This document shows, one piece after another, positions 2 through 41,200 of a stretch of 64,000 nucleotides of DNA (its first letter is position 1; each line of letters starts with the position of its first letter). Position numbers and translations under genes: made by a program. The DNA lies in NCBI GenBank assembly GCA_044892505.1, contig CM097883.1, positions 314,588,001 through 314,652,000 of the forward strand. The letters are read 5' to 3'. This stretch comes from Schmidtea nova (lineage: Eukaryota). The notes below the pieces were generated by a model that was given only the letters and a program-made list of their open reading frames with translations, was not told the DNA's origin and did not search any database.

Positions 2-112
2 CCAGGGTGAGCAACTAGGTTCGATGACCTCTGCATCTAACATCTTTTGTACCTCTTCTTCTGCTACTGCTTTTTGAGCTTCTGCCAGTTTATATGGTCT
101 TAATGCGATTGG
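2..112 (-). other. N-terminus of Ty3/gypsy reverse transcriptase
   Basis: ...LLMEYKDIFA...HTIPLTDETPIALRPYKLAEAQKAVAEEEVQKMLDAEVIEPSCSPW matches the canonical gypsy RT start (P...PY...L..G.I.PS.SPW). Confidence 0.9.
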
Positions 113-3100
113 CGTTTCGTCCGTCAACGGTATCGTGTGCAATGTTACATCACATGTTCCTAAATCCAAATCTGATGCTGCGAATATATCTTTATATTCC
201 ATCAACAGTTTCTGTAACTGTTCTTTTTGTCGTTCGTCTAACAACACACTGTCGATTTTCCATGGTAATTCGTCTTTGCTTTTCTCGTTCTTGTCTGGTA
301 TTTCGATTTCGGACATGGGTGTCAATTTACCCAATCTCTCATTCTCATATATTATCTTGTCCTCTTCGTCGAAGTTCACCAGATTGATCGGTATTTCTCC
401 TTCTTGGTTTATCGTGACCAATTCTCTTGCCATTGGTAATTCTTTCTTCACTTCGAACTTCTTACTTGGTTCGAATACCATATCTCCTTTTATTGTCGAA
501 TCGATCTTGACGTAGCACATCATTTCGTGTCTCGCTGGCACTACTATTTGTTCCGCACTTGCCACTTTAACTTTCATTCTGCAGATTTTTCCTGTTCTGT
601 CTTTTAGCTTCATTGCTCCTAGATCAATTACGATTTCCTTGAACAGGTCTGGCATCAGGTCAGTTCCAATAATACATGGTACACTCAGCGATGGTATTAC
701 AGCGATGTACGTGTTGATCTCTGCACCTCGATGCTTAATTTTTACAAACCATCTTCCGGCTACTTCTACTGTCTCCTGACTGCACGCGATTACATGTACA
801 TTCGTTTTCTCAATTTCTCCTTGGTTTTTCTCGGGTATATAGTTAATGTCGATTGCCGAAATATTCGCGCCTGTATCGATCATAGCTTCAATTTCTCTGC
901 CATTTATTTCTACGGTTGTTGTTAAGATCGGTCCCATATTTGTGGACATAACCGCTATCGTGTGCGTGTCTTCCAACGAGTTTACGCTTCCGCCTCGTTT
1001 TACTTTGCATCCTTCGGGAATTATCGGGTATATACTTGTCATCGGCATCATCTGCCTCATATTCGGCTTCGCTTTATATATCGGTTCGTTATACATTGAT
1101 TGGGGTGGAGCACTGTATCTCCAATTCTCAACCGCACTCTTTTCGGTATATTGTGGAATCTGGTTTATATTCGCTTGTCCTCCTCGATCGTCATCATCAT
1201 CTTCATCATTGCTTGAATCATCTTGCGTTCGATATCCTCTCACTCTTTCCCATAATCCTTTCCTTTCCTTCTTCAGTTGTCGCCTTGCTTGTTCGTCTTG
1301 TATTATCTTTTTGAATTTCCTTCCAACATCTTCATTTGTTCCTTTCATTTTCGCAAGTATCTTCAACAACCTCTTTATTCGATGTATGTCTTTTGAGTGT
1401 CCGTGTAACACCATCGTTTTCGCAAGGAATGGTAAAAACCCTACTACCATTTTCCAATTCACTTTCTTTTCTCTCTTGTAGATGTCGAAACACGCTAACA
1501 TTTGAGTTATTATCACTCTGACGATTTGTATTATCAGTATAACCCCCAGTATTCCAGCCATCATTTGTCCAAATATCAGGAATCTTCCCCACATTGCCTT
1601 CATCATATTTTCTGTGGCTTTCTTGAAATGTGCCGGTGACAACAACAGTTCGTAATTCGGTCCTTCTCGATAATTCGTTCCTCCCGTTATTGTTACGATA
1701 TTTGACAGTAATGCTTCTCTTCTTGCCGGGAATAATATATTCTGCCTTGCCGCTTCTAAATCTTTTGGACTATAGATTCCGTTGTTTGAGACATCTACGT
1801 CACTGAACTGTCTATCCTTTGACAACTGCATTAGCTCAAATTCTCTTGGTGCTAATACTTCAGTTCTTCCTGGGAACATAACCCATTTGCCATCTGGCTT
1901 CTGATAAAGCGGTCCGTACGCATTACTACAGTTGAATGGATTTGGTTCAAAACTTGGTGGATTGATGATTCTCGTCACCGGTTGAACGTATCGTACTTTT
2001 CCTTTATAATCGATTTCTAATTCATTTGTACATTGTCCAGGTTTCAACTGCGTTGTTGCTGCTAGCGATGCGTGTGTTTTTTCGCAAATGTATACGTACA
2101 TTGCTTCTCCGACCACTCTTCCGAAATGTCCTTCTCTCAGTGGTAATAACGGCATCGCGCTATCTGGATTCGTAATCGCTACGGCCAACTTTGTCTTCAA
2201 TATTTCTCGATTCAGTATACAATCGTTGTTTATCAGATCGTAGTACACTTTTTGTAATGAGGCTTGTCCTCTATGGAATAAGAAATCCATTTTATTATTC
2301 ACATATAAGTGTAGCTTGATATCCATTGTGTCGATCTTGGGTTTCGCATTCGGCACTTCTTGTTTCGACACGTATATTCCTGGATAGTTTGTTTCGTATA
2401 CTGTTGTACTGCACTTAAGGGTTGCTTTCCCTTTTATGAATCTCATTCCCACATCCTGATTTGTGGTTATCAACACTGTTGGTGTGGTTCTCATCTCTAT
2501 CCGTTTCTCTCTATGATCTGGTTTCAATTGTCTTTTGTTCTCTAAAGCCTCCTTGAGATGTTTTGCTCTAGCTTTGTCATCATCGTCTTCTTCTTGGAAG
2601 GTTTTTCCTTGAATTTCGTCGAACTTTGCTCCTTGTAGCAGTTGTAATTGACATTCGTTCACTTTTGGTTTATACACCAAAGTTGACATTCCCGTTTGAC
2701 ACATGCTTCTGTCAATTTTGCACATGGATAACGTTTTCATTTCTCCTGTTGTTGGTTCGAAGAATGCTTCGTAGCTTTTCAGTTCGACTATATACGTATC
2801 CATTACCACTAAGTTGGTTGCGGGTACTCCGAATATCGGATAGGTTTCTCCTTGACAATACCCTTCTCCTCCCGTAATTCGTCCTGCTACATAATACGTC
2901 TGCTGTAACATCATTCCTGGTTTTCCTTTTATCTTGATTTTATCTCTCGTTGTTACTTCTCCATGTTTAAATAATGCTTCGCAGTCTTCCCCTTGCAACA
3001 CGATTGGTTCTCTTTCGGTTCCTGGCATGACAATTGCTGAATAATGTCCTCTCCCACAATAGAATGCGAATCTCGTCTTCTGTACCTTGCATTCATTCAC

Positions 3101-4351
3101 CATTGTCTTTATTAGTTCTGCCTCTTGATACACGTGGTACCATTGTTCCTTTTTGATCTCTTTCAATTCTACTGGAGTTGCATCTTTGCATTGCTCCGTA
3201 CCTCTCAATGAGTACTTTTCTCCCAATTTCATTTGATCACAATCAAATACTTCAAATGTTGTTACACCTTCCGTGCTTAACAACCATACTAACATCATCA
3301 TGATTATCGAGTTTAAATTCAACGTCGATCTTCCGTTTCCTTGCATCGTTTGTCTATTCTCCATTTCTCTCAATACTCCTTCAAGTTTCTTTCTCATCAC
3401 GTTTGAACCCTCTTTTGTCTGGTTCTCTTTTATGAACTTTTCCCATCCTCCTTTCCTGAGGATATATGGTTCAATTTCTTTCTCGATAATCATCGCCGTA
3501 TTTTTAATATGTCTTCCCATCGGACTTGACTTCGGACTTCCTCGGCTTAGCGTTAACAAATTGTATATCGTATACGAGATTGCTACCATATATTTGCTGT
3601 CCGTTTCTGCTCCGTTAAGTAGCCTTTTTATTAACATCGTGGTTCCTTGCCAATCTAGATGATTCGATTTTGTTTTAGCTTTTATCAATTCTGGCATAAT
3701 CGGTGCTATTGCATTGTGTAGCATCCTTGCCTTTGTCCTAGGTTCGTTTATCCGCCACAAATTCTTTAATTCTGGGTCAATTATCGCTAACACATCCATT
3801 ATCGTTTTGGTGAGCCATTCCTCTCCTTGGCAGACTTGATTCTCCTCTTTGCCTCTGATTTCTGCGATTTTATCTAATTTCTTCAAGCAAATCTCCCATT
3901 GCTCTTGTCTCCTTTCTTCCCTTGATTTTGGGATTGTTGTTGCTGGATCTGTCTTTGGTCTTCCTCTTGGTCGTTTTTCCATTCCAGTTCCGGTTTCTAC
4001 AAATCTCGATGCTCTTCCGGTTTCTTCTGTAACGTCTCTTCCTTCGTTCGCTCGTTGTTCTAACCATCTTTCCATTTCTTGAGTAAACTGTGGTTGTTCT
4101 TGTTCGTCCTCCGAATCGTTTACCATTTCTATGACTACCTCCTGTTCCACTCCTTGATCGTCGATTTCTGCTGGTGACGTTATTGGCATCTCTATTATTC
4201 TGTCAAAAATATTCGCCGTTGGTTTTTGAGTTAACTTCGTTAGTTCTTCTATCGCCTCATCACTATCTGTTAGTATCTCATCGACGTCATACGCTTCTGG
4301 CGGTGTTCTCTCTCTCGTTTTTATTGGTGTTGTCCTTGCTTGTTCCTGGGG
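2..4351 (-). CDS. pol: Polyprotein part 2: acidic linker, Bcl-2-like domain, gB-like Env, protease, spacer, RT start (open to window edge)
   Basis: Manual translation gives a stop-free frame from 4351 (after TGA 4352-4354) to position 2; first ATG at 4189. It is absent from the ORF track because there is no stop in the window. Confidence 0.9.
653..934 (-). other. Retropepsin-type aspartic protease domain
   Basis: VEINGREIEAMIDTGANISAI (DTG at 869-877) ... CIIGTDLM. Confidence 0.93.
1409..3307 (-). other. env: Class III fusion glycoprotein (chuvirus-like / herpes gB-like Env) domain
   Basis: Hydrophobic signal, then FEVFDC, YCGRGHYSAIV, YVNNKMDFL, YYDLINNDCILNREIL, GEAMYVYIC, CTNELEI, PVTRII, NGIYSPKDLEAARQNILFP, and TM WGRFLIFGQMMAGILGVILIIQIVRVII. 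These blocks match recalled chuvirus-type G motifs in the same order. Confidence 0.85.
3422..3820 (-). other. Bcl-2-like helical domain
   Basis: BH2-like EPYILRKGGWEKF (GGW 3443-3451) and a degenerate BH1-like PELI...LDWQGTTMLI about 65 aa upstream, followed by a hydrophobic anchor. Confidence 0.55.
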
Positions 4352-4442
4352 TCATTGTTGACTTCATCGGACTTGGTGTACTCATGCTTCCTTTCGCTTT
4401 CTTTTCCTCTTTAAACTTCAGTGGTTGACCCACTATTTGTGC

Positions 4443-4643
4443 CACTGTTAGCGTATTCATTAGATCCAATTGCACTGGTGTCAGTCAGATTTCAAAATTG
4501 TTATCCAACGATCGTCCTTGATGTTGCAGGTGGAATGGTAGTTCGTACATCAGTTTCTCTTTAACACTTTTCACTTTCTCTGTTAGCATCACCCAAAACT
4601 CTTCTTTTCTTTGATTCGGATACATTATCCTCAAATGTATTTT
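4443..4643 (-). other. Ubiquitin-like domain 2 (spans the TGA at 4485-4487)
   Basis: KIHLRIMYPNQRKEEFWVMLTEKVKSVKEKL...FHLQHQGRSLDNNFEI*LTPVQLDLMNTLTV follows the beta-grasp pattern. Confidence 0.5.
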
Positions 4644-7600
4644 CTGTGGCGTTTCTTCCGCAGACTCTTTGTTTCTCCACTTTTTTATTACATCGTCTAG
4701 TTGCTCCGGACACCACTCATTTACTCTCTTGTATTCTGCTATCGCTTTAGCTACTTTTCTCAAGTTCGTTATGTCTTCCCCATTTGTGATTATGAATTGT
4801 GCTAAGCCTTTTATTGTTTGTCTTTTTCCCCGAGTATTTCCTCTCAATAGCTCGATCAATTCACTCGTTTTCTGTTTCTCCAATTCTGCCCATATTGCTG
4901 CAGTTTCTGGTCCGTCTAAGTCCGTTGGTAATAACCTCCTTGTTACCATACATATCCGTTTCGTATTCCGTTCATATCTGTCTTCTCCTTCCGGATCTTC
5001 TTCATACACGCCTCTTTTCACTTTCCAACATTTCTCTTTGTTATCCCATTGTTTCTCTACTGGCGTCAATCGTCGTCTGTTAAGATCCAATTCTCCCAAT
5101 ATTGTCTCCCATTCTGGCTTCATCTGCCAGTTCCGATAAATTTCTACTATCTGCCTCAGCTTACGCATAACGTCCTCTCGTCGTTTCTTTTTCCTTTCCT
5201 CATCTCTTGGTGTTGCTCTTTGCACATCATCCATTCTGATGACGTGTATTGTCTGATAATTATCCCATATGCCGATTTTATACGCTCGTCTTTCATCGCG
5301 TTCATTCAGTAGATGTTCTTTGTATTTTATCGCTATGTCATCCTCAAATTCGTCTTCCCGTTCTCGTTGTAGTATCGTCTCATTGATGACCTCTACTATT
5401 TCCCCCACTTTACTATCTGGTATTACCTCAATTTGTTTTGTCTCTTCGTTTGGTAATCTCACGGTAATCTTCAGATCTGATACTTCTCCTCTTTTAAACA
5501 TTTCTTTTCCCATCTTTGCGATTAGCTTGTCCGTTTTGAAATTTGAATGTCTCGTTTGACTTGTATCTCGTATGTTCTCGATACATTGCTTCAAATTCTC
5601 ATACTCGCTTTTCGTCAGTTCCTTTCGATGTTTCTTGATTTGTTGGATGATCTGTTCTATCATCGTATTCAAATTCTCCGCCAAGATTCTTTCTTTTGCC
5701 TCTACCAACTGAGGTTTTATTCTCATCTCATAACACGTATTCGCTTCTTTGACGATTCCTTGTAAGTTCTCTTCCTTTTTGGTGTTGCATATAGATAGCG
5801 TTGTTATTTCTCCTGGCCAGATGCCTGTGTCTATCATATGCGTTCCTTTTCTCACCAATCCGTTTTCCGAATATATGAATTTGTCTTTGTACGAGCTTCC
5901 CAATCTGTCCTCAACCCATCGGTAAATTCCGTCTGTCATTGGGTTCCTTATCCAGATTCTCGGTGAACACTCGTTTATCCATATCTGTATTATGTATTCG
6001 TTCAGTGGTTCTTTCAATAGCCTCTCTATGAATTCTTGTATTACCCTCACTTCTCTTTCTTGTAACCACTCTTTATACTTCATCTGCCATACTGCTCGTA
6101 TAAACTTTCGATATCGTTTCGTGTCGATAAACTCCTCGTTATGGATCACTTCCAACGCGTTATCCATCAGCTTCTGAATTTCGTCTTCCGTTACTGACAA
6201 TGTTTCTATTGTCTCGACTACTTCCATCTTTTTATCCTCGTTTTCCGGTTCCTTTAGCATGTCTCCTGCCAGACTGCTAACTTCGCTGTCGTCTTCTTCA
6301 TCTGACAACTCTTGTCTTGGGTGTCTCAGCATCCCAATATGCGCGGTTGGTCTCGCTTCTTTTTTGCTAACTTCCTGTGTTAGTTCATTCTCGTTTCCCG
6401 TTATTTCAGCTTTTCCCATTCTTTTTCCTAATTCATCTATTTCTTCCAACCGTCTTCGTCTTATTTTCCCTTTAAATATTCGACTGATCCGGGTTTGATG
6501 TTTCACTGGTGGTGGGATTTTCTCCGGTTCCACCTCTCTGATGATCATCACGTTTATTTTTGTCTCCGTTACTCCCATGTCTTCCCATGTGTCAGTCATC
6601 TTCAATTTTACTTCTGGCAAATCCTCTGTTTGTAGGAATGCTTCTCTGGGCAGTTTCGTTACTCCCGGAATCATCTCATTTACTTTATTGAACAATCTTC
6701 CCACTTCTTCTTTTACATCGTATTTGAATCGCCACACGTGATCATTCGGCATGATCACCAACATTCCTCTTTGTTTGATTCTTACTTCCTCTTCTTGATT
6801 CGTTTCTTTTTCTGTTTCTTTTTCTGTTTTTGTTTCTTTTCTCACTTCTTCATCTTTTTTATTCTGTTCTGCAGTTTCTACTTCCTGATTCGCTTCTTCT
6901 TGTTTCTGCTCTTCGTTTCTTTTCTCTTTAACTTCGAGTTCATTTGACTCATCTTGCTGCTTCTCTTCCATCATTGCTCGCATCATGTTGATCCTTGGAT
7001 TTCCCTTTTTTAACTGTTGTAATCGTTGTTGCCTGACTTGTTCTTCTTCTCGTCGTACTCTAGCCCATTCTTGATTATGTTTCTGTTGGCTTTCTCTATT
7101 CTCTCTTTCGGCCTCAGCTTCTATTAACTGGATCATGTTTATCTTTGGTTGAGCAGCTTGCTGGCTTCCCTTTGCCATGCTTTCGATTATCTCGTGTAAT
7201 CTGGATACCTCCTGTCTCAACTTAGCTTCTTTCATACTAGCTTCGTTTGCACTGCTGTTTGGGTTGTTCCGTTGTTGACCTTGATTCCCATAGCTTGGTC
7301 GATTCCCGTAATTCGGTCTATTTCCACTGTTTGCCCAACTTCTCTGTTGATTACAGTCTTTTGACATGTGTCCGGTTTTTCCACATGTGTAACACGTTTT
7401 CCCATAACATCGATTCTCTGAGTGACCTTTTTGTCCACACAGTTTGCAGGCTACATTCTGAAAACAATCTTGTTGCCAATGTCCGTTTTTTCCACACGTC
7501 TGACATTGCCTATTCTGCCTGTCATTGTAACTGTTTCCTCCATTCGTGTTTACTGTGATATATCCATTATTTTTCCTCGCTGGCGGTTCTTTGAACAATC

Positions 7601-8222
7601 TCTGCGAATGGGGGATACTTTGATTCATGTTTCTTTTTCCTTGTTCTTCATCTTCTGTCGTTTTTCCCATTACCGCCGTAATTCTCATGTCATTCATTGC
7701 CATATGCAATTCGAATAGGTTGGCTGCTTCCAACGCTTCATCTACTGTTTTACATCCTTTGCATCCCACTTGTGCTCTGATGTCAGGTCTCCTGAGACCT
7801 CGTACGAATAACGCTGTCATCAATTCTTCGTCTACTGGGCTTCCTCTATTGAATGCCAGTTTCGCCAACTTTCTTAATTCGCTTGCGTACACCGCATTTG
7901 ACTCGTTTCTCCTTTGTTTTCTTGCTGAGAACTCATCGAACGCTTCGTTCAACACTTTATTTATCCCAAACGTCTGTTGGAAGAACTCCTTGATTGCTTC
8001 CCACGTTCTGGGTGGATTACTTCCCGATCTCTTCTCAATATACAGATCCAATGCGCTATCTTTCAAGTATAGCGGGATTCGATTCGCTAACGTTTCTGCA
8101 CTCCATCCGCATATATCCACGAATATGCCAAATTCTTTCAGGAACGTGTCCAATCTACTGGCGTCTCCATTAAATGGTTCGCCCTTGAATTTTTCTCTTA
8201 GATCCTCTCTGTGATCACTCAT
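4485..8222 (-). CDS. gag: Polyprotein part 1: Gag capsid, 3 CCHC zinc knuckles, coiled coil and accessory domains
   Basis: 1245 aa ORF with retrotransposon gag motifs (FNGD...FLKEF, W...K..F...F, FVRGL) and three CX2CX4HX4C at 7353-7505. The frame stays open upstream to 8705 except for one TGA at 8586-8588. Confidence 0.95.
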   Translation of the reverse strand: MSDHREDLREKFKGEPFNGDASRLDTFLKEFGIFVDICGWSAETLANRIPLYLKDSALDLYIEKRSGSNPPRTWEAIKEFFQQTFGINKVLNEAFDEFSARKQRRNESNAVYASELRKLAKLAFNRGSPVDEELMTALFVRGLRRPDIRAQVGCKGCKTVDEALEAANLFELHMAMNDMRITAVMGKTTEDEEQGKRNMNQSIPHSQRLFKEPPARKNNGYITVNTNGGNSYNDRQNRQCQTCGKNGHWQQDCFQNVACKLCGQKGHSENRCYGKTCYTCGKTGHMSKDCNQQRSWANSGNRPNYGNRPSYGNQGQQRNNPNSSANEASMKEAKLRQEVSRLHEIIESMAKGSQQAAQPKINMIQLIEAEAERENRESQQKHNQEWARVRREEEQVRQQRLQQLKKGNPRINMMRAMMEEKQQDESNELEVKEKRNEEQKQEEANQEVETAEQNKKDEEVRKETKTEKETEKETNQEEEVRIKQRGMLVIMPNDHVWRFKYDVKEEVGRLFNKVNEMIPGVTKLPREAFLQTEDLPEVKLKMTDTWEDMGVTETKINVMIIREVEPEKIPPPVKHQTRISRIFKGKIRRRRLEEIDELGKRMGKAEITGNENELTQEVSKKEARPTAHIGMLRHPRQELSDEEDDSEVSSLAGDMLKEPENEDKKMEVVETIETLSVTEDEIQKLMDNALEVIHNEEFIDTKRYRKFIRAVWQMKYKEWLQEREVRVIQEFIERLLKEPLNEYIIQIWINECSPRIWIRNPMTDGIYRWVEDRLGSSYKDKFIYSENGLVRKGTHMIDTGIWPGEITTLSICNTKKEENLQGIVKEANTCYEMRIKPQLVEAKERILAENLNTMIEQIIQQIKKHRKELTKSEYENLKQCIENIRDTSQTRHSNFKTDKLIAKMGKEMFKRGEVSDLKITVRLPNEETKQIEVIPDSKVGEIVEVINETILQREREDEFEDDIAIKYKEHLLNERDERRAYKIGIWDNYQTIHVIRMDDVQRATPRDEERKKKRREDVMRKLRQIVEIYRNWQMKPEWETILGELDLNRRRLTPVEKQWDNKEKCWKVKRGVYEEDPEGEDRYERNTKRICMVTRRLLPTDLDGPETAAIWAELEKQKTSELIELLRGNTRGKRQTIKGLAQFIITNGEDITNLRKVAKAIAEYKRVNEWCPEQLDDVIKKWRNKESAEETPQKIHLRIMYPNQRKEEFWVMLTEKVKSVKEKLMYELPFHLQHQGRSLDNNFEI
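5232..5471 (-). other. Ubiquitin-like domain 1
   Basis: KITVRLPNEETKQIEVIPDSKVGEIVEVI...IAIKYKEHLLNERDERRAYKIGIWDNYQTIHV follows the ubiquitin-fold pattern. Confidence 0.55.
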
Positions 8223-8705
8223 CCCGATTCCACTATCTTGGAATACTGTACTAGTTTTCTTTACTTCTAGTTCACCACTTGTTTCTGGATTCGACTCTTC
8301 TTCTTCACTACTCTCTGTTTCGTTATCTCTTGATTCGCTTCTTGTTCTGTTTTCCCTGACTAGTTCACTGTCTATCGTCTCTACTTCGTTTTGTACTTCT
8401 AGATCTTCTGGGGTTTCTTCTTGATTCTCTTTATTACTCGAATTATCGCTGATCTCTACTTGTTTGTTCTTTTGTTGCTTAGGCTTGTTACCTGTTCTTG
8501 TCCTTTTCGCTGCTTTTCTTTCTGCTTCCGTTAAGATTGGTATTATACCTGATCTTGTTTCTCGTCCCTCAATTTTGTCTATTCCTCAACTGCTTATATT
8601 CTCAACTGCTTTTCTACTCCGCTTTTGCTTTGCTTCTTCTTTGATTTGTTTCTTTTGATTGCTCTGACTGCTAGATTGCTTTGAATTGCTTGATTGATTT
8701 GTTTC

Positions 8706-8766: not shown

Positions 8767-9097
8767 GGGTGTAGTCATAATTCATGAAGATCCCCATTTT
8801 TCCCATTTCCCTTGATTTTAAGTCTATTTAAATTATCTATGCAGTCGCATCAATTATCTATTCTTTATCAAATACACCAATTACTTTTCCCCAGTTTCCC
8901 AATTACTTTGTCGCTCAGCGCTCTTATTATCCCCTTTACTTTTCTCAGGCTTCTCTGGCTCTGAGTTCAAATCCCCCTTATCTGTCTACTACTCTATTTC
9001 CCAACTATTCGCTTTATCTCCTATTCGCACTACGTTTACTACTTCATTTCAATTCTCATCTCTACTCACCTTTACTTCAACTGACATCTCTCGTTGG

Positions 9098-9476
9098 CCT
9101 GCTGGGTTTTCCAGTCAGCGCTTTTAATCTCACCTTTTATCTCGAACTCTGTTTCTCTCAACTTCACTCATTATCCCATTAGCCTGCTGGGTTTTCCAGT
9201 CAGCGCTTTTAATCTCACCTTTTACTTCTGCTTCATTATTCTCGACCTCAATTGTCGTTTCATTAGCCTGCTGGGTTTTCCAGTCAGCGCTCTTATTATC
9301 CACCCTTTATCTCTTCACTGTCGACTTTTACCTGTTCTTTGCTCCGATGATCATCACTTTTGACCTGCTGGGTCTTCCAGTCAGCGTCCTCAATTTCACT
9401 ACTTTATTATTACTCACTTTTATTCTCTCGATCTTTCCTGATCGTTATCATTGACCTGCTGGGTTTTCCAGTCAGC
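9098..9476. repeat. Five 22 bp hairpin-forming repeats (CCTGCTGGGTTTTCCAGTCAGC) with 62-75 bp spacers
   Basis: Copies start at 9098, 9183, 9267, 9364 and 9455. Confidence 0.9.
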
Positions 9477-9803
9477 ACCCTTCACTTACTCACTTTACTT
9501 TGCTACTCCTCCTTGTATGCATACTTTAACATCATTAGGCCACATAATCAGCTTTACTCGCATTTATCAATACCCCGGTGCGCACCTTCAACTCTCTCAT
9601 TATTAATTCGGTTTCTTTCAACCCTTATTCCTCATTATTCGCTATTCATTTTCACTATTCATCATTTATCCTCATTATCATTTATTCATCTCCATTATCG
9701 CTTGTTGATCTTCACTATCCGGATAGTTTTATACGTAATTTTGTCCTCATCTGCCTCACTTCGTCGTCTTTCTCGTGGGCTTTTACTCAATATTTTATTT
9801 CGA

Positions 9804-10445
9804 ACGAGAACTATGCTCACTGCTGAGAACTATGCTCACTAACGAGAACTATGCTCACTGACGAGAACTATGCTCAATGACGAGAACTATGCTTACTGAC
9901 GAGAACTATGCTCACTAACGAGAACTATGCTCACTGACGAGAACTATGCTCAATGACGAGAACTATGCTCAATGACGAGAACTATGCTCACTAACGAGAA
10001 CTATGCTCACTGACGAGAACTATGCTCAATGACGAGAACTATGCTCACTAACGAGAACTATGCTCACTGACGAGAACTATGCTCACTGGCAAAACATGGT
10101 TGTTATGAGGGTTTTGCTTACTGATGGAAACTCTTTGCTCCGGGGATTATGTTCCCCGATGAGAACTATGCTCACTGATGGTGACTACAGGAATTATGCT
10201 TCCTGATGAGAACTACGCTCACTACGATGACTATGTTTATTGATGAGAACTACGCTCACTGATGAGGACTATGTTCGCTGTTAGAACTTACGTTTATTGA
10301 TGAGAACTCTGCTCACTACAAGATTTATATTTACGGACGAGAACTATGCTCACTATGGTGTTGTGTTTTATGACGAGACCTACGCTCACTAGGATGTTAT
10401 GTTTTATGACGAGACCTATGCTCACTATGAGACCTATGCTCACGA
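9804..10445. repeat. 19 bp tandem array (ACGAGAACTATGCTCACTG), degenerating rightwards
   Basis: About 15 near-perfect units to ~10090, then degenerate copies. Confidence 0.95.
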
Positions 10446-10857
10446 ACGAAAACTCGAAATATCATCTCTCAGTGGTTGCATGTGTTGCTTCGGGATGTTC
10501 CTCCCAGTGGTCACTTATGCTTCTTCGGAGAATCTATTGTCGCGTTTCGTTAAGTTCTATCTTTCAAGAACTATGGGCAAATCCTTTCTCTTTAGGACCC
10601 CTCTTATCATTTCCTTTCTTTCAAGGAATTCATTTAACCTCGAGTTTTCCATTTACTCGGTTCATCTGTTATACCCCTTTATTCTATTATCGATTCGTCA
10701 ATCTTTCTACTTGACTTTACCTTATGCGAGCTGATTACGTGCCTTTCATCATATACCACATTTCTCTACTCCTCTTACTCATTTCATTGCTTTATCTCTC
10801 TCTTTACTGATCAGTTTAACATCCTATTTTTATAGTTTTTCTGCGCGCGCCTACACC

Positions 10858-11142: not shown

Positions 11143-11601
11143 TTACAAGTACACTGTTATTTTCTCGGATACAGGTAGGTTGCACATAGGACATCGTTCA
11201 TTTATTTTACAGTCATTACAGAATCGAAAATGCCCACACGGCAACAACATTATCTGTATTTTGTTTATTTCACAGATGTAACACGTCAGATATTGTCTCG
11301 TATGTTCTGTTGTTATTCTTATCCACTCATCGTGTTTTGTTGCAATCTGTTGTTCTAGCCTGTGGCACTCGATATTCATCTCAGGGTTGTTTAATCGCTC
11401 TCTATACCACTGATATCGTGTTGCTGTATCCACTGTTATCTTATTCTCGCTTATGCTCATCATCATTTCGGCTCTTTCTGTGTTGTTTGTCGGTTCGTGG
11501 TATCCTCCTACCTCGAGTCGTTTTAACTTTCTCGTTATGGTCTCCACTGTTTCGTTGTTTGTCTCGAAAAACGTTTGCATTTCTTTTATTTTGTTCTCCA
11601 T
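11143..11601 (-). CDS. Coiled-coil + C-terminal RING-HC protein (IAP-type RING), putative E3 ligase
   Basis: CYICEINKIQIMLLPCGHFRFCNDCKINERCPMCNLPVSEKITVYL: C3HC4 with the LLPCGH signature at the extreme C-terminus. Confidence 0.85.
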   Translation of the reverse strand: MENKIKEMQTFFETNNETVETITRKLKRLEVGGYHEPTNNTERAEMMMSISENKITVDTATRYQWYRERLNNPEMNIECHRLEQQIATKHDEWIRITTEHTRQYLTCYICEINKIQIMLLPCGHFRFCNDCKINERCPMCNLPVSEKITVYL

Positions 11602-12135
11602 CCCCTGAATGAATTACCATTTATTTCTGTCGATTTTTATTTATTATTCCTTATTCTTATTCTATGGTAGTCCTACTGTTCGCTTTCTGTTGTTCTGTTT
11701 TGCGTCACTGCGTGTATATCCCCCCGTGTTCTTGAATGTCGCCCCGACATGATCATTGTTAGTTGCTCACACTCATACCATTTTCATACGCGCTTTTCAG
11801 CATACTTTTACCTTACGTCATGCATACTTTTCATCACTTTTCATACTGTTATTCCACATACTATTCCTCATACTTCATTCATCCCCATACTTACATTCCA
11901 TTGTCATTCATTCTTTCATTCTCATGTATACTTTTATCATGCTCATCACTCTCATTATTTTACACCCATACTTTATTTATTATTTTTCAACCCGATTCAT
12001 TCTTGCTTCAGGACCCTTAAACCCTCTGTTATCGTTTACTTTACTTTTCGTCGCTAATTTCGATTCCATCCCGGTTCATGCGCTCTAAACTTTCCGCAGA
12101 TATCGAATTCACTTTTTCCCACAAAGATCGATTTA

Positions 12136-12153
12136 ATCCCGGCTGAGCCCCCA
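12136..12153 (-). promoter_or_regulatory. Primer binding site complementary to tRNA-Pro
   Basis: TGGGGGCTCAGCCGGGAT is 16/18 identical to the MLV PBS-Pro TGGGGGCTCGTCCGGGAT and lies directly after the LTR end AATT. Confidence 0.88.
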
Positions 12154-12313
12154 AATTTATGCTGGTGTGTTGGTTGGATTGACAACTGAGATCCTTATGA
12201 TTTTATACGTTAGGGTGATCTCGCCAACATAAAAACATTCCCCCCGCTGACACCCATGATGTATCCCTAACTACTCATCATGTTGGTGCTGTGTCAACGT
12301 TGTGAAATGACAA

Positions 12314-12382
12314 GGCAGGTGAGCAACCTTTCGGCTACTATTCCCTTGTTTATTCACGGGTCCACCACTACCGATAGAAGGT
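12314..12382 (-). ncRNA. Conserved structured RNA motif with GNRA hairpin (copy 1)
   Basis: CCTTCTATCGGTAG...GGACCCGT...TAG-TAGCC GAAA GGTTG-CTCACCTGCC; covarying relatives at 42278, 46364 and 52281. Confidence 0.55.
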
Positions 12383-12545
12383 GTCTGTGGCTTTCTTTCG
12401 GTCCCACTTATGCTCTTTTCTATTGTCCTAGGGTGATTCAATTTTATTACATCTGCGGCTTTAAATGAATCCGGGTTTTAGTTATATTCAATTCTCAGTC
12501 ATTCCACAAACAAACAAGACAAGTCAAATCATTCGTTTTATACAT

Positions 12546-13166
12546 TTATTTATAGTTCAACAATACAGAGGGTCGTATTACATTTAGTAGTTCTTGCTCG
12601 GATAGACCACTGAGCAAGTCTACTTCGATTCCAAGGCGATCTGCATACGCGCGTCTCTCCCTACGCTTTTTCGCTCCCAAGCGCTTCCGTCTCTTTGTTC
12701 GTTTCGAGCCTTCCAGAATGATTGGGGATGTTGGGGTAGTTGTGATTGGGATGGTTTCTATCTCCGTTTGGGTACTTGTTGTCATCGATATTGTGTCCAC
12801 CCACCTATTAAAGGTGCTAGTCCTGATCACTGGGCGTAATTGCTCGGTGATAAACTCCTTGGTTGATGCCCTCAAGTAATTCGACAGCTCCATCTTTAGG
12901 GCTGCTACCTCCCTAGCTTGCTCGTCGATTGTTCGCTCCGCTCTGTATCGGGCTTGCAGGATAGTTTTAACCCTCTCTGGGTTGAACCACGTGGCTTTAA
13001 TTCGCTGGTGCTCTTCGTTTAGTTGACGCAAGCGGTTTTCTAGGACTCGCGATCGTGCTTTATGCTCTTTGGCCTCTTGTTTGTAGTCCCTAGTCGGATG
13101 TTCACTCATCTCTGTAAAATGTACAATTAATCGGGTTATGTATGGTTTGTCTGTTCTCTCAGTCAC
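12546..13166 (-). CDS. LTR-encoded accessory protein B (coiled coil, Arg-rich motif, Leu-rich C-terminus)
   Basis: Intact ORF with homologs at 42580-43167 and 45815-46153; AATAAA overlaps the stop. Confidence 0.75.
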   Translation of the reverse strand: MTERTDKPYITRLIVHFTEMSEHPTRDYKQEAKEHKARSRVLENRLRQLNEEHQRIKATWFNPERVKTILQARYRAERTIDEQAREVAALKMELSNYLRASTKEFITEQLRPVIRTSTFNRWVDTISMTTSTQTEIETIPITTTPTSPIILEGSKRTKRRKRLGAKKRRERRAYADRLGIEVDLLSGLSEQELLNVIRPSVLLNYK

Positions 13167-13300
13167 TATCTTTATTATTAAACCGGTGTTTCACTCTCAG
13201 ATCACTTCATGCATTCAAAGACATAACAAAACCCAAAAATTAATACATTTATTTTTAATACACCTCTCATCTTTCTTCGAATGATCGATTTCCTTGCGAT

Positions 13301-13936
13301 TTAGATGAAGGTTCGTAATTCCTGGTCGGCCGTGTTCTCGTCACGACGGATTCCACTTTCGTAGTAGAACTCCGGGGCGGGGCTCCAACTTAACTTGTCC
13401 CGAAAGATGAATACCTCCCAGAGACGAAGGTCTTTGGGCTCGGGTTGTTGGTCCAACGAAACGCTTCCCGGCGCGTTTGAGTAGGCGAAGACTTCCCCAG
13501 TGTCGCCACACCGAGGCCTGTCTAGCAGCAGGTAACCGAGTTGATGTAGCTCTTTTCCGGACATCATTCCAGTACTTAGTAGCCAGCGGGGCTGCTGTGC
13601 TTCATCCACGAATTGGTAGAACCATCGGGGATTCTCCGGTTTGCTATGATCCGAGGAGGGTACCCAATCAGTATCTCCTTCCCACCGCAACTGTAGTCCA
13701 AACGCGCAAGCTGGGGTGCTAGCGGCTGAGCTCATGTGAGCCCTCATCCATCGTCGTAGGTGGCGACGTGATACTTCTGCGACCTTTCGAGGTGCTTCGT
13801 TCTCTCCTCTGATGTTTATGATCGTATTGGGTCGGATGACGGAGCGGGTGCGCCGTTTCTTACGAAGGATGGTGTCCTCTATCTTTATCGGGTGCGCGGT
13901 CATCGGCTTCTCTTGGAAATTCTCTAGTTTCACCAT
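13301..13936 (-). CDS. LTR-encoded accessory protein A (unknown family)
   Basis: Intact 211 aa ORF with homologs at 34627-35229 and 43252-43761. A TATAAATA lies ~60 nt upstream and an AATAAA downstream. Confidence 0.75.
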   Translation of the reverse strand: MVKLENFQEKPMTAHPIKIEDTILRKKRRTRSVIRPNTIINIRGENEAPRKVAEVSRRHLRRWMRAHMSSAASTPACAFGLQLRWEGDTDWVPSSDHSKPENPRWFYQFVDEAQQPRWLLSTGMMSGKELHQLGYLLLDRPRCGDTGEVFAYSNAPGSVSLDQQPEPKDLRLWEVFIFRDKLSWSPAPEFYYESGIRRDENTADQELRTFI

Positions 13937-14871
13937 AGTATTTCTAAAGAAGATGGTTGTTTGTTAACTATGGATTCTATGGTATAACGGGCCTATTTAT
14001 ATTAGTCAACCCACCCGTTATACTTAATTTTCAACACTCATGTTCAACCACTCAGCTTTAACAGTTTTTATTTATCGATAATACTATTTAATCACATTCA
14101 ATCTCATCAGTCGTTTTCAATTACTTCCTCATCTAACCAGCAATGATCATACCATGTCGGGTAATTCTCGTAAGTACCTGTGATCCGTACACGCTGGGGT
14201 TCATCATTTTATCAGTTCTCAATGCCTGTGATTTATTTATCATCTCTCTTGGCGATTAAACGCGTCTGACAGAGGTTATCGATTACCCTTAACCCTTGAT
14301 ACTAGGTTCACTATTCCCGAACTCGTAAGCGCTAATGTTGACATATACCTACCCTCGTCGTCACCTAATTCATCGGCACTAATATTATTCACTACACGTC
14401 TATCCCTCGTCTAGACTTCACCGCGATATATGTCCTTCCTATAAAACGGGTTTCACTTTGCGCTCGTTTACGACTACTAGTTTATACTCGATACCCTATC
14501 ATCGTGATGTATAACGTTTACATTAGATCATCTCTACCTTGATTTCGTTCATGATCATTAGGTCTTACTCGATACCCTATGTGCATTTAACCCCTTCCGC
14601 TTTCCAAATATTTAATACACCTATGGTCCCGCCGCATCAGCACCTCACAACCGAAAGATTGTGTTGCGCTGAGAGGCCCCAAGAATCCGTCAGGCTGTTA
14701 GGCCTCCGGAAAACCTTATGGATTTTAATATGGTTATAAACAATTATGAGGGTTTAAATACATCAATAACATAACTCCAAATTACCTTTTATTTTCGCTT
14801 CGAAATCGGTATTACAACGTTTTCAGTAAGTCACAAGAGCTTACACTTGGTAAAAAATGACATATTCAAAT

Positions 14872-14922
14872 ACTGATTTTACTTCAGTATTTATACTGAA
14901 CCGGTGTTGTTGGTTAGCCAAT
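14872..14922 (-). promoter_or_regulatory. CCAAT + TATA (TATAAATA 14895-14888) + TCAGT initiator-like promoter
   Basis: The same CAGTATAAATAC and CCAAT spacing occur at 44698-44732. Related TATA boxes are at 33068-33075 (+) and 53161-53168 (-). Confidence 0.6.
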
Positions 14923-15684
14923 CAGCATCGAGTATGTGTGTTTGATCATTATTCTGTGTTGCCGGCTTTTTGCTGCCTAACTTAACTCGCCGATTTGTTT
15001 GGTTAATCATGCGGTAAGTTTATTTTTTGTACGATTTAATTTTTATTTGATTTTGCTTTAGGTCTTCGGTGACATCCGCCCACGCGCTGTCATATTCCAA
15101 TTTTTTCTGCTTCGCATGAGTGAGTTTTGAAGATTTTTGTTGTTTTGATTAATATGTTATTTCTTTTAGATGTTGCCGCCTATTTTGTTACGCTTTGGTG
15201 TTGGTAATTTATTTTGTTGTTATTCTGTATTTAATTTATTTTATTGATTGTACATTATTTTCAGATGCTGCTCGATTTGGCTGGCCCAACAGAAGCAAAG
15301 ATTGCTGAAAGAAAATTCAAGCCAATTTTATTTATACTGAAGCTTTATCAAAGTTTATATAGTTTTCTAACTTACAATCTCCCTCGTCGACGGCTGCTAA
15401 ATTGTAAAGAAGCTAAAAAAGAAAAACTTTTCAAGTAACCTTTCGTGGTTTTTTATTATTTTGTTATTAATAAATATTAGTAATTTAAAATAGTGCTGTT
15501 TATTTTATTGTATCTTATATACTTTTATATTTGATTGTTATTATATCATATCAGTAACCGCACTACACAGCACACACCCCGAGTGTCGACACATTGCTAA
15601 CGTCTGACTCTCTCGGGATCTACAACTCTTCTACACATCCACCCAATCAACAAATTAAAAACTCAAATTAGAACAGCTCAAACA

Positions 15685-15687
<3 letters not shown>

Positions 15688-15726
<39 letters not shown>
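15688..15726. repeat. (TA)n microsatellite at the element 1 boundary
   Basis: Direct reading. Confidence 0.95.
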
Positions 15727-15729
<3 letters not shown>

Positions 15730-16217
15730 AGGAGAACTAAAAGCAAATTGGATTTTATTAATAGAAATTGATCGCTAATTGATAAGTCGGTTTTTTGCAA
15801 CCGGAAATCTTGACCGATGATAACAAGAGTTGAAATGAGCAAGCTCCATGACAGACCGTATTGATTGATTTCTGGTGCTGGCGAATAATCCTTTAATCGA
15901 GATTGATTGTGATCCAATGTATTGATTTGTAGATTTTTTGAGTTAGTCATTTCAGATTTGTCTGGATAGTATATTAATATTGATCCAGTTGATGACAAGC
16001 ATCTTCCAGTTTGTACAGCTTCTTTACGCATTCCAGCAGCGAAACATTTCTGCAATCTACGGAACTGGCAATTGTTTCTTCTTTGAATATCGCCTACATA
16101 ATCTCCACTAGAGTAGAACTGATAATTGTTGTCATTTGATGAAAATGAGTCACTGTGAATGTCTTGGGTGAATGGGTATTTTACTCCATTTAATAATTAA
16201 TTAATTTATAAAATTGA

Positions 16218-22538: not shown

Positions 22539-25252
22539 TAGTGTTTCTTCTCGAGAATTCTTTCTCGAGAAATTCTCGAGAAAATCGATAAAGTTATTAA
22601 GTAGCAATTCTCGAGAAATTTAGATATTTCTCGAGAAATATGTAACAAATATAATTAAGTGTATTATTTGAATAAAACTTTGTTATTTTGTGTAATTTTG
22701 AAAGTTTTAATAATTTACCGTTCTGTTTCGTTTTCTTATTCATCAGTGTCATACAACTTTTTTACAACACCGTTAGTTTTCTATTTTCTTATTCATCATT
22801 CTCTCATCCTCATATCTCAGTTGTTGTACCATACTTAATAATTCGGGGAATTCCCGATAGTATATTTGAATAATAAATAAATTATCAGTTGAGCAATTAC
22901 TATATAACTAATTTCATTGTGAAATAACAACTTGAAGTCATAAGTCTTGTTTTAGCGAAGTAATAATTAGAGTTTTGTATGTAAAAATATTTTTAATTAA
23001 AAAAAGGAAACCATATAACTATATAATAAATTTAATGTAAGTAGTTGTTTTATTATAAATACTGTTTTTAAAATAAGTCTAATTAAAAAAATAGAAACCA
23101 TTTACGCAGAAAATGAGTAAAATTTACCGGGACTGTTGGGAACATTTTAAAAAAAGTGAAAGTAATAAAGATTTGGCAATATGTAAAATATGTCTTAAAC
23201 CACTTTCATGCAAAGGTTCGGCGACTATTGGTCTGCGTAGGCATCTTGAAGGTTTACATGAGTATAAAAGAGAAGAAGAAAACAATTATGGTCAGAGTAC
23301 CTCAAAAAATGCAAAAAAATACAGGTATGGAGACAATCCAATTGAATCTTTCTTGAAACGACCAACTATTGGTGAATTAGTTTCAAAGTTAGCAGCTGTT
23401 GATGGAATATCGTTTCACAGAATTTCTAAAAGTGAATTTATTAGAACATCTATGAGTGGCAAAGGATTTAATTTACCACAGAACTCGACCAAAGTGATGC
23501 AATTAATGCTGAACTTTTATGAAGAAGTAAAACAACAGCTAATAAAAAAAATAATTAAACACAAAGATAATGGTAAGAAATTCAGTATATCCATTGATGA
23601 ATGAACAAGCATGAAAAATAAAAGATATATGGATATACCTTTATTATAATAACAAAGATTCAGACAATTTGGGGATGGTTCCTGTTGTTGGTAGTTGATC
23701 TGCAGAAAAAGCATTGGAATTAGTGAAAGAAAAATAAATCGTTTAATATCATATTTAATGACAACGTCGTAGCTACGATGAGTGATGGTGCTGCTGTGAT
23801 GCAGAAATTTGGACGATTATCTTCTCAATTTCACCAACTTTGCTACAATCACGGGTTGCATTTGGCTGTTCTGAAAGTATTTTTTGTCAAGAAGGGCTAT
23901 CCTGATAACTTTGCTTGTATCGAGGAATCTGATAACGAATCTGAAATAGAATATTTAGAAAATGAAAATAATAACTGACGACTCCGATATAGAAGTTGTG
24001 GAAGACGTTGATGTTTATTTGCAACCCCAAATCGAAAAAGCAATTAAATTCATAAGAAAAATATCAAAAATGTTTAAAATCTCCCCCGTTAAAAATGCTA
24101 TATTACAAAAATATGTAATGGAAGAGGAAAAAAAGAGCTAATGGTAATTTTAGACTGTTGGAACGATGGAACACGATGGAGGCTATGGTAGAAAGATTTG
24201 TACGAATTAGTGGCTCAATCAAAAAAGCATTATTGATTGAATTAAATTTGGGTAGTTTGTGGAATATTAGCAACATTAGCAACATTAGCAACATTAGCAA
24301 CATTAGCAATATTAGCAACATTAAAACCACTCCGTATTACAATTGAAAATCTTAGCCGAGAAGATTCTACATTATTAACTGCTGAAGGAGCTTTCAGGTT
24401 TTTATTTACAACTTTGGAAAAATTAAATACTAATTTAAGTCGAGATCTCCTTAATGCAGTTAGGGAGGAAATGTCTAAAAGGAGGGATTATACTTTAGTA
24501 TCGGTTATTAGGCTCCTACAGAATCCTGATTGTATGTCACATAAAGAAAATGATAGTTTCTTTGACATGGCACCAAAAAAAGAGATATATAAATTGGCTA
24601 AATCTATATCATCTAGAATTTTTGAAATTACAAACAGTGATAACAATAATACCGAAGAAATTGGTGACACTGAAAATGTTGAAGAATATCCAGATCGAGA
24701 AGAAGAGGTAAGTCTACAACAACAAATAAATTTTGCAATTACAAAAAGTTTACAAGAGTATGAAAGTCCGAATGCTAACAAATTTCAATCATTAGATGAG
24801 GAATTTAAAATATTTGAAGCAAATGGGAAGAGAACCTCAAATTTGCAGAATCTTTTGGATGCACTTCTCACCATTAAATCAACTTCTACGCAAAATGAGC
24901 GGAATTTTTCTATTGCAACAGATTTTGTTACCAAAAAAGAACCAGAATGGGAGATTCAACTTTGGACGCTCTGTGTTTCTTAAAACATTATTTTAAATCA
25001 CAAAAATGATTTAATTTATTATATTTTTATAAAATCTTTTATGTATTTTTGTAAAACTTTAAGAAATTATTTTTACGTTATTATTTTTTATTTTGTTGTA
25101 TAATAAAAATGTGAATTTCAGTTTATATTATACTGCATTAGATTTTTATTTTAATAAAATATTTTCTCGAGAAATCTCGAGAGATCTCGAGAAAAAAAAT
25201 ATGTGTTTTCTTTTCTCTAGAAATTAAAAAGGGTGAGAAATGAGGAACACTA
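22539..25252 (+). mobile_element. Decayed hAT element with BED zinc finger transposase
   Basis: TIRs TAGTGTTYC, subterminal TCTCGAGA clusters, BED finger (CKIC...LRRHLEGLH), DE*TS, MSDGA, CYNHGLHL, RWN, ERNFS. Multiple stops and frameshifts; 9 bp ATTAGCAAC expansion at 24266-24323. Confidence 0.9.
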
Positions 25253-38237: not shown

Positions 38238-41200
38238 CAGCCCTGGATTTACGAATAGGCACACTAGGCACCTGCCTAGGGCGGCAAATTTAGAGGGCGG
38301 CAAATTTAGAGGTCGGCAAAAAATTAGTATGTAACCGATAAGAAAAATTCAAATTTTCAAAAAATTAATTTTTCGTTTCTCTAGAATTGAATATGTAAAA
38401 ATTAATGTACAGAAAAAGTTTATATAATGTCATATTCATCGTTTTGTATGTATATGTATATAAAAATGTTTATGTTTAAATGAATACAACACCATATCAA
38501 ATTGAAAAAATAAATTCAAATTCAAATATTTTTTGTTCTAGTAGGCATAGACATTGGTATATTTGTTTTGTTATTGACAATTATTGACAATTATTGACAA
38601 CTTATTGTAGATACATAAGAAAAACATAATTTTATGCGTTTGTGTCCACTTGTGCCATTCATAAGTTGTTATTGGAGTCAAGCAGTCAAGAAATTCTTTT
38701 TGTTTGTAATTTATTAAGAAAGGCTACTGTTTTTTATTGCTGATTAATCTTAGTTTTCTCGCGGTTATATTTGCGTAAGTTTGCTTTCTCTGTTCAAATA
38801 TAAGTTTTCAAATTCATTTTGAAATTTTTTTTTAATCTTATTTAATTAAAATAAAGTTTTTATTCAGCTATTGAAATGAGTGACGGAAGGAAGAGATTAA
38901 GTGGTGCGAAGTATCGTCAGGAGGCCAAAGAGAAATTGGCAAAACAAAGAAAAATTATTGAACAATCTACGAAAATACAGTCGTACTTTAACATATGCTC
39001 AAGCTCAGGTGCTAATGGTAAAAATATTTCAGATCTAAATTTAATAGAAAATGTACCATCTTTGTCCACAGAAAATACCATTATTTTACCAGTTTCATCC
39101 ACAGAAAATACCGTTATTTCACCAGCTTTGTCCCCACAAAACATTAGTTCCAATTCTAGTTTAAATAAAACAACTGATGGTACTGAAATTGCCACAAACA
39201 TTGAAAATACGAACATCAGTACCATGATATCTATAAGTAATGATCCTGGTAATTGGAATATTGACGAATCCTTGATTGATTTTGTTGTAAAGTTTGGTTT
39301 CAAATCCAATAAGAATGTAGATTTCAGTACATCGAAAAAACTATTTGGTGACAAATATCGTTGTTTGAACGTGCAGAATTTTTCGAAAAAATTAAAAAAT
39401 GGAGAAACTCATGAAAGAGATTATTTATCGTATTCAGAGTCTGATAAGGCTCTATATCGTATTCCTTGTTATTTATTTAAAGATAATAGTTCTTTTTCTA
39501 AAAAGGGTGGATGCTCAGATTGGAAAAATATTTCACAATTATTAGAATCCCACGAAAATTCTTCTACACATCGCCGTTGTGCTATGATCATGATTGAAAG
39601 AAGTAACATGAGTGTAAGTGTGGAAACATTTTTGCTCAAAAATTTTAAAAACGAATTAGATTATTGGAAAAAGGTTTTAAATAGAGTTGTCTTTGTCATA
39701 AAGAAGCTATGTAGCCGAGGATTACCTCTCGAGGACACAGTGAAAAATTTTATGGCAATCACAATGGAAATTTTATGATGTCACTAGAAATGATTGCAGA
39801 ATATGATTCATTTTTGAAAGAGCACATACTAAAGTATGGAAACTGTGGTTCTGGAAAAACTTCATACATGTCAAAAAAAATATGTGATGAATTTATTAAT
39901 ATAATTGGAATAGAAGTGAGAAACAAAATAATCAGTGATATAAAAAAAGCAAATTATTTCTCTATAATTGTTGATTCGACACCCGATATTTCTCACACTG
40001 ACCAATTATCATTGATAATTCGATATGTTGATATTGCTAACGGCAAAACAGTGGAACGATTTTTAAATTTTTTCGACAATGTTGATCATAAAGCGGACGA
40101 AATGTTTGAAGTAATATTGAAGTTTTTGGATAAATTCAAATTAAATTTGGCAGATTGCAGGGGACAATCATATGATAATGCAAATAATATGTCCGGAATC
40201 TACAACGGCTTAAACGCTAAAATTTTAGGAATAAATTCACGTGCTATTTTTGTCCCATGTGCTTGCCATTCTATAAATTTAGTTGGTCAATGTGCTGCTG
40301 AGTGTTGCACAGAAGCTGTGCATTTTTTCATACTAATTCAAAAAATTTATAAATTCTTTAGTGTGTCAACAAAGCGGTGGGCTCTATTGAAAGCAAAATT
40401 AGGGCCAACCGAAAAACTACCGAAGTCCTTATCTGACACTCGTTGGTCAGCTAGATCAGATGCCTGCACAGCCTTGTTTCAAAATTATAAAGAGATAATT
40501 GATTTACTTAAAGAAATTGAAAGTGACAATTTGGAAAAAGTATTGACTCGTACTGAAGCTGGCGGATTATTAAGAAAAATGGAAAAAATGGAAATGGCAC
40601 TGCTCCTTACTATTTGGCAAACTATTTTAGAACGTTTTGATAGTGTAAATAAAAAATTACAAACCGCTAATACGAACCTGCTTACTGTTGTTCAGCTATA
40701 CGATTCGTTATTAGACTACTTTTTGGAAATGAAGCAAAAATTTTTTAGATTTCAAGAAAAAGCTTTGACAATTTCGGTTAGCTCTAGTTATGAACAGAAA
40801 AGAAATAGAAAAAGGAAAATGCATTTTGATGAATCCGAAGATGATGAGATTATAACAGATAGTCCAAATGAATTATTTAAAAAGAATGTATTTGATAAAA
40901 TTATATCAGTTTTGATAAAAGAATTACAAAAGCGTAAAAATTCATACAATTTTTTGAATGAAAAGTTTGGATATCTCGAAAATATATGTTCTATTGATAC
41001 CCATGTTATTATAAAAAAACAAAAGATCTGTACGAATTTTATGAAAGGGATTTGGACTGTAACGAACTAATGGAAGAAATTCTTCATTTTAAACAGCTTT
41101 TACAGAAAAGTGATTTATCCGACTCTGAAAGAAGTATCGCAAACCAGTTCAATTTTTTATTTAAAAAAAAATATAATAACGTGTTTCGAAATTTGGAAAT

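Follow-up and report, generated by a model that had tools for sequence, protein, structure and literature searches.

A Burro-type giant Ty3/gypsy element of Schmidtea nova with a predicted class III fusogen in frame between Gag and Pol

The giant Ty3/gypsy elements known as Burro or GYPSM1 were reportedly described by Jurka in 2007 and by Grohme in 2018. The account of planarian Burro given by Arkhipova and Yushenova in 2019 (PMC6431247), in the parts of it available to us, puts env between gag and pol in the same frame, with an ORF1 of 4,873 and 5,140 aa, and reports that the Burro Env matches mononegavirus glycoproteins and is also likened to the F-type Env of gypsy. BURRO1 is characterized, in the available part of another paper (PMC8532177), as abundant, active and PIWI-controlled. 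On a broader scale, Chary and Hayashi (eLife, PMC13524379) find, in the passages available, that gB-type Envs are widespread in Ty3/gypsy elements, where they are as common as the F-type ones, that a GAG-ENV-POL order with a gB-type Env exists in Nematoda, Bryozoa and Platyhelminthes, and that the elements with this order do not form one clade on Pol. Their search tolerated gaps of up to 2 kb between domains, and those same passages do not state that ENV and POL share a frame (PMC13524379); they also refer to NERV (Sacco et al. 2022) as a metavirus with env before pol. The hosts of NERV are nematodes, unlike that of the element studied here. In the work of Sacco et al. in 2022, its gag, env, pro and pol reportedly make up one continuous ORF that includes an RNA-virus glycoprotein, and it is not known to carry Bcl-2, TRAF or ankyrin cargo. 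Elements with a chuvirus-like glycoprotein were also reportedly found in BEL/Pao by Dezordi in 2020, Anakin being a name used for them; they share the Pfam fusogen family of our element but belong to another retrotransposon superfamily.

We analysed a stretch of 64,000 nucleotides of the S. nova genome (contig CM097883.1, positions 314,588,001 to 314,652,000 of the forward strand), termed here the window. Its minus strand carries a multi-copy Ty3/gypsy retrotransposon of 29,126 bp (Table 1), which extends past the window start, the twin of its 5' LTR being found 10.7-13.8 kb beyond that point (L032:5566-8697). The two LTRs show 4 differences over 3,132 bp (99.87% alike), and the same 4 bases are found on each flank of the element as a target-site duplication; the insertion of this element is recent. 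Several of the 40 matches scored in the copy search described below also show LTR pairs, 24-26 kb apart. We take the primer-binding-site-like 18-mer to resemble a tRNA-Pro site. The Pfam domains of Pol come in the order RVP, RVT_1, RT_RNaseH, Integrase_H2C2 and rve, which is of the Ty3/gypsy type, and no Pao-type family was found by Pfam in the element ORFs scanned. The gypsy-type host element of the original prediction is well supported by this Pol order together with the LTRs and the target-site duplication. Two other assignments were considered and rejected: a BEL/Pao element with a chuvirus-like env (there are no Pao-type domains, and Env does not come after the integrase) and a classical insect errantivirus such as gypsy or ZAM, with its F-type env 3' of pol (Env is here gB-type and precedes PR).

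Table 1. Features of the element within the window, with the basis of each call.
Feature	Position	Strand	Basis
5' LTR, 3,132 bp, TG...CA	12160..15291	(-)	repeat comparison
Primer-binding-site-like 18-mer, six bases inside the 5' LTR	12136..12153	(-)	position from sequence
Accessory ORF, 156 aa, with C-terminal C3HC4 RING finger	11143..11613	(-)	PF13920 E 5e-9
Gag: Retrotrans_gag and three CCHC knuckles	4485..8585	(-)	PF03732 E 9e-6; PF00098 E 8e-10
Premature stop and frame change splitting gag from env-pol	4352..4487	(-)	two ORFs, different frames
Candidate Bcl-2-like domain, helical, with a BH2-like GGW motif at its end; directly precedes the Env signal	3434..3871	(-)	
Internal signal sequence, followed by a predicted signal-peptidase site	3266..3310	(-)	hydropathy
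Class III fusogen ectodomain, 561 aa, predicted gB-like fold	1583..3265	(-)	Pfam, profile, model
Transmembrane anchor (TM), predicted stop-transfer	1496..1582	(-)	hydropathy
Short second hydrophobic stretch after TM	1406..1456	(-)	
Retroviral aspartyl protease (PR), DTG at 877-869	647..919	(-)	PF00077 E 3.5e-9
PR-RT spacer, site of a dUTPase-like domain in Burro (available parts of PMC6431247)	149..631	(-)	
RT lead-in; RVT_1 core starts just beyond the window edge	2..103	(-)	

The central feature of this locus is a stop-free frame of 1,450 codons, which runs on the minus strand from position 4351 to the first bases of the window. It is open at its 3' end, and this is likely why the ORF track missed it. 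When the neighbouring genome stretch (L031) is included, the Env-Pol frame of the window copy reaches 3,674 aa: past the window edge, the same frame continues through the RT core, RNase H, the integrase, ankyrin repeats and a membrane-type tail. The original prediction had put signal, ectodomain, TM, DTG protease and RT in one frame; this stands, except that only the lead-in of RT lies inside the window. Its further point, a Pol placed behind a membrane-spanning segment, agrees with the TM at 1582-1496, which precedes PR in frame and is the only stretch of 19 residues that exceeds the hydropathy threshold. The layout of the signal recurs in 13 of the 13 Env homologues shown, and the positions of both signal and TM are kept in Env homologues that are 28-41% identical. 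As for the PR-RT spacer, no dUTPase was found there by Pfam, the only match being DUF3945 (E 0.37).

This organization is that of a whole family. With the env-PR junction as query, 796 candidates were found at first look; 40 of them were scored, with 96-97% nucleotide identity. Signal, TM and DTG are in one frame in 28 of the 29 other copies fetched, so that Env is in frame with PR there too, in accordance with the original prediction, and the alignment is unbroken to the RT start in 25 of the 29; the copies fetched are the best env-PR junction matches, which favours intact ones. Among the 20 copies that were extended upstream, 19 are continuous in a single frame between the zinc knuckles and PR, the remaining one having no upstream part, and 16 are open over all of the 3,022-3,032 codons fetched. 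At least 67 copies were scored at the far end, and 17 of 67 have an open frame of 5,079-5,090 aa in which no stop was flagged, a length near those published for the Burro ORF1. All of these samples lean towards copies in a good state of preservation. As reconstructed from these copies, the family polyprotein is of about 5,085 aa, in the order Gag-Bcl-2-like-Env-PR-RT-RH-IN-ankyrin. The place of Gag in the Env-Pol frame of the family had escaped the original prediction. About 900 aa of the Gag ORF, after the knuckles, gave no family match above the cut-off. Pooled dN/dS values, in pairs which all share the window copy and are therefore not independent, are 0.017 for the ectodomain and 0.010 for the protease, both against 29 copies, 0.012 for the signal (which is identical in 25 of the 28 copies where it was recovered) and 0.053 for the Bcl-2-like domain. 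As judged by such ratios, the single frame is under purifying selection.

The nature of the Env could be approached by several routes. Its ectodomain, which contains 14 Cys and a single N-glycosylation sequon (few for a viral glycoprotein), matches the Pfam family PF24664, Monjiviricetes_fusion, with an E of 3e-72. A HMMER search with Env among 1.84 billion representatives gave 880 matches at E<=0.001, the best of which are long polyproteins; one of the 20 proteins looked up is a named viral match, the glycoprotein of Wufeng shrew chuvirus 2 (26% identity, E 3.6e-32). In an alignment of 103 Env sequences, 13 Cys are conserved at 90% or more. Compared with the PDB, the Env profile ranks herpesvirus gB first (E 0.0025). 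The Env model (pLDDT 90.3, pTM 0.73) has a central helix of 48 residues (residues 315-362), and the 37 Foldseek matches listed for it are all herpesvirus gB (best E 3.2e-14), with TM-scores to gB of only 0.24-0.43 over the whole chain. The chuvirus/gB-like identity that was originally proposed is thus supported by family, profile and model alike: Env is a class III fusogen, gB/chuvirus-like, as far as sequence and predicted fold can tell. This differs from the F-type likeness given for the Burro Env in the available parts of PMC6431247.

Just upstream of the Env signal, a helical domain may belong to the Bcl-2 group. Pfam gave no Bcl-2 match in the domain of the window family itself, and gave matches in sister families (E 2e-4 and 1e-3). 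A profile search with the domain ranks Bcl-xL first (E 0.0014), and for its model, which has a pLDDT of 66, all of the 36 Foldseek matches listed are of the Bcl-2 family (best E 8.7e-3). We regard this domain as Bcl-2-like on weak but concordant grounds: it falls below every curated cut-off, and three methods agree.

The likeness to Burro extends to the element as a whole. It is found in its size (about 30 kb), in the long LTRs, the one ORF of about 5,000 aa and the many copies, in the succession of a Gag with three CCHC motifs, a Bcl-2-like domain, an in-frame Env, PR and a PR-RT spacer, and in the ankyrin repeats, the TRAF/MATH and RING cargo and the Env matches of mononegavirus type. By its sequence, the window element has the Burro architecture, which is matched by the published description of Burro. 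The layout is real, but it was published for planarian Burro in 2019, and we are dealing with one more family of a described group, which by itself changes little. What is firmed up is that a Burro-type Env is predicted to be of class III, and that this Env, in a family of very recent insertion, is selected as strongly as the protease. With the GAG-ENV-POL errantiviruses, the element shares a Ty3/gypsy Pol, a gB-type Env before pol and its multi-copy state; the window family was not identified among the supplement rows of PMC13524379 available to us, and the passages available mention neither Burro nor the cargo domains.

There are also differences from Burro. The ankyrin repeats follow the integrase (Ank_2 E 6e-19), and 3' of pol there are a complete, separate TRAF-like ORF (RING, zf-TRAF, MATH_2 E 4e-27) and also coiled-coil-like ORFs. 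TRAF/MATH is thus in a separate ORF 3' of pol here, whereas it lies inside ORF1 in S. mediterranea and upstream in D. tigrina. The BIR, SUMO-like and dUTPase-like domains of Burro were not detected here, with no Pfam match in the scanned ORFs, among which the small ones were partly covered, the published calls having been made by HHpred. After the ankyrin repeats, the polyprotein carries two signal-like stretches, at least three related repeats of about 85 aa and a TM, in a region under weaker purifying selection (dN/dS 0.14-0.47). Two language-model searches hint at fibronectin type III (FN3) for these repeats, at 0.83 and 0.87, under the threshold of 0.9, and Pfam and PDB profile searches did not confirm this. 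The FN3-like membrane module, which ends the polyprotein here, is absent from the domain list in the available parts of PMC6431247. It is likewise absent from the titles and the beginnings of abstracts of the papers found on Burro and Schmidtea, whose supplements may mention it; such a module after the integrase is possibly unreported.

Two questions date from 2019: how capsid, envelope and enzymes arise from one chain that crosses membranes, and whether the element spreads between cells in animals that have adult stem cells. Our main reading, to which we give a probability of about 0.8, is that of a Burro-type giant Ty3/gypsy element with one frame of about 5,085 codons, in which Gag is followed by a Bcl-2-like domain, then by a class III fusogen and Pol, the polyprotein being likely threaded into the ER co-translationally and cut by both its own protease and the host signal peptidase. 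Synthesis would begin in the cytosol with Gag and the Bcl-2-like domain; the ribosome would then be brought to the ER by the internal signal, and the ectodomain would pass into the lumen. Signal peptidase would free the N-terminus of Env, and the signal would remain at the C-terminus of the Gag-Bcl-2 part to anchor it in the membrane, much as in HCV core-E1, where an internal signal is cut by signal peptidase (available part of PMC5402940). This leftover signal would serve the Bcl-2-like domain as the tail anchor that is usual for such domains. The TM would halt transfer, so that PR, RT, RH, IN and the ankyrin repeats would be cytosolic and tethered to Env. Env trimers and Gag would then cluster at the membrane, allowing protease monomers to meet and Pol to be cut free, and enveloped particles would carry the element between cells. 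The presumed likeness to HCV and the flaviviruses would consist of a capsid, an internal signal, an envelope, a TM and enzymes in one chain, processed by signal peptidase and a viral protease; there is no homology, and these RNA viruses have fusogens of other classes and do not reverse-transcribe. With flavivirus-like threading and two proteases, a Pol behind a TM would need no new machinery. Judging by titles and beginnings of abstracts, none of the papers found on gag-env-pol retrotransposon polyproteins and signal peptidase deals with these elements.

A bolder version is possible, though in our view less likely than not. These elements would be infectious retrovirus-like agents that follow a flavivirus logic, with one chain of 5,000 residues crossing the ER membrane several times, and with Pol as a loop in the cytosol, held by the TM of Env before it and by a second signal after it. 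Three products would be released by the host signal peptidase: a Bcl-2 mimic with a tail anchor, the class III fusogen and a receptor-like surface protein of FN3 type. The separate TRAF gene would interfere with innate signalling; the FN3-like module would be a captured gene that was not found in our searches.

Among the other readings, the one that survives best, while being improbable in our view, is that Env serves in cell-cell fusion or anchors assembly to a membrane within the cell, with no infectious extracellular particle. The literature covered here describes no particles, the ectodomain has only one sequon, and adult stem cells may let an element be inherited without leaving the cell. 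However, the whole ectodomain, with its conserved Cys, is selected about as strongly as the protease, whereas an anchor would need the TM only.

Slightly less probable still is that the long frame is real in the DNA, but that the main source of Pol (or Gag) is RNA in which splicing or truncation leaves out the membrane part. In foamy viruses, Pol is translated from a spliced RNA, and retroviruses make Gag in excess. A single frame implies an equal output of Gag, Env and Pol, which is awkward, so that a spliced or truncated RNA may exist; judging from retroviral biology, it would solve this 1:1:1 stoichiometry. Against this, both junctions are open in most copies, and the linkers are themselves under purifying selection, as expected if they are translated through, with dN/dS values in the same pooled comparison of 0.069 for the TM-to-PR linker and 0.10 for the acidic linker.

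It is very improbable that this gypsy lineage recently and independently acquired a chuvirus glycoprotein, at a position not seen before. The named viral match to Wufeng shrew chuvirus 2 would be in favor of it, as would the separation of the window Env from that of P0058, the one example checked in which Env follows a DUF5641 domain as in BEL/Pao, and which falls outside the window Env clade. However, both the position and the Env type are published, for Burro and for the GAG-ENV-POL elements, in the available parts of PMC6431247 and PMC13524379. A tree rooted at its midpoint was built from 121 Env regions (of 157, 36 had been dropped by length); in it, the window Env belongs to a clade of 15 Envs with a support of 0.999, which includes families 28-46% identical to it: other families of the same genome are at 36-38%, and unnamed polyproteins go down to 28%. 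The sister of this clade is made of five unnamed glycoproteins of 647-716 aa. A protease follows Env in 10 of the 17 homologues scanned, which were long or top-ranked, and the six Schmidtea Envs seen in the eLife supplement (Smed_errantivirus_1-6) resemble the window Env by eye, numbers 5 and 6 the most. This tree and these homologues indicate that the capture is old and shared, and not peculiar to the window element. The independent capture at an unusual position of the original prediction is not upheld as new or element-specific, and a "recent" and "unseen" capture is largely refuted.

To the idea of two ORFs, one for Gag and one for Env-Pol, with programmed frameshifting or read-through between them, which the separate gag (8585-4485) and env-pol (4351 onward) of the window copy, in different frames, would suggest, we give next to no credence: it is refuted for the family by the 19 of 20 other copies that are continuous at the gag-env junction, and the window version of the break is in none of the other 39 scored matches.

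With the single-frame polyprotein as the state of the family, the break at 4352..4487 is private to the window copy, none of the other scored matches being more than 95% identical there, and Gag lies in the Env-Pol frame elsewhere. The window copy would thus not make the full polyprotein, and was likely either mobilised by the proteins of other copies or damaged after its insertion. As for the genomic setting, the window also contains a host hnRNP gene, whose top named identities, of 58-63% with flatworms versus 56-59% with arthropods, make a flatworm host likely, and the GC content of the flanks is of 22-41%.

The Env search of the same genome, in which 68 out of 3,411 first-look candidates were scored, returned at least two further families (loci L054-L083), whose Env is 36-38% identical to that of the window element, and which repeat the succession of a Bcl-2-like domain, a signal and Env. 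Further features of the element and of the window are collected in the table.

Features of the element and of its surroundings (L031 and L032, neighbouring stretches beyond the window start)
Feature	Position	Strand	Remarks
Receptor-like membrane module	L031:2830-4803	-	Polyprotein end, fused after integrase and ankyrins
TRAF-like ORF, full	L031:848-2278	-	RING, zf-TRAF, MATH; within the element, 3' of pol
Long coiled-coil-like ORF	L031:3-788 + L032:9501-9998	-	Smc-like by look
176-aa ORF	L032:8903-9430	-	Signal-like start, TM; immediately upstream of 3' LTR
LTR ORFs, 214 and 220 codons	window 12549-13190, 13304-13963	-	Inside LTR
Short degenerate tandem repeat arrays, spaced repeats	window about 9810-10450, 9090-9480		By eye
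Decayed, related gag	window about 55745-58215	-	CCHC knuckles; stops and frame changes
hnRNP A1-like host gene	window 48350-49472	+	Two RRMs, Gly/Tyr-rich tail
Two hAT-like transposase remnants	window 23095-24983, 38855-41420	+	By look
Nuclear-receptor zinc-finger-like exon	window 15678-16196	-	By look; adjoins 5' LTR

The receptor-like module holds two signal-like stretches and at least three related Cys/Trp repeats, followed by a TM and a short tail, and a language-model search weakly links these repeats to fibronectin type III. Further downstream, the scanned parts of the coiled-coil-like and 176-aa ORFs gave no family match above the cut-off. Both LTR ORFs are present in each LTR and, read in the 3' copy, had no confident match in Pfam. 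The repeat arrays lie within the leader that separates the RING ORF from gag.

The decayed gag is a second, older relative within the window. The hnRNP A1-like gene, which is split over two adjacent ORFs, served solely for host placement.

Among the database proteins found with Env, the related polyproteins P0152, P0004 and P0006 carry several aspartyl-protease-like domains C-terminal to Env (up to six such stretches in P0152), and they additionally bear C2H2 fingers and ankyrins. Another polyprotein of the same kind, P0008 (Env-PR-RT-IN), is labelled by NCBI as a Flavobacteriaceae MAG protein; its source is likely animal DNA that was binned into a bacterial assembly.
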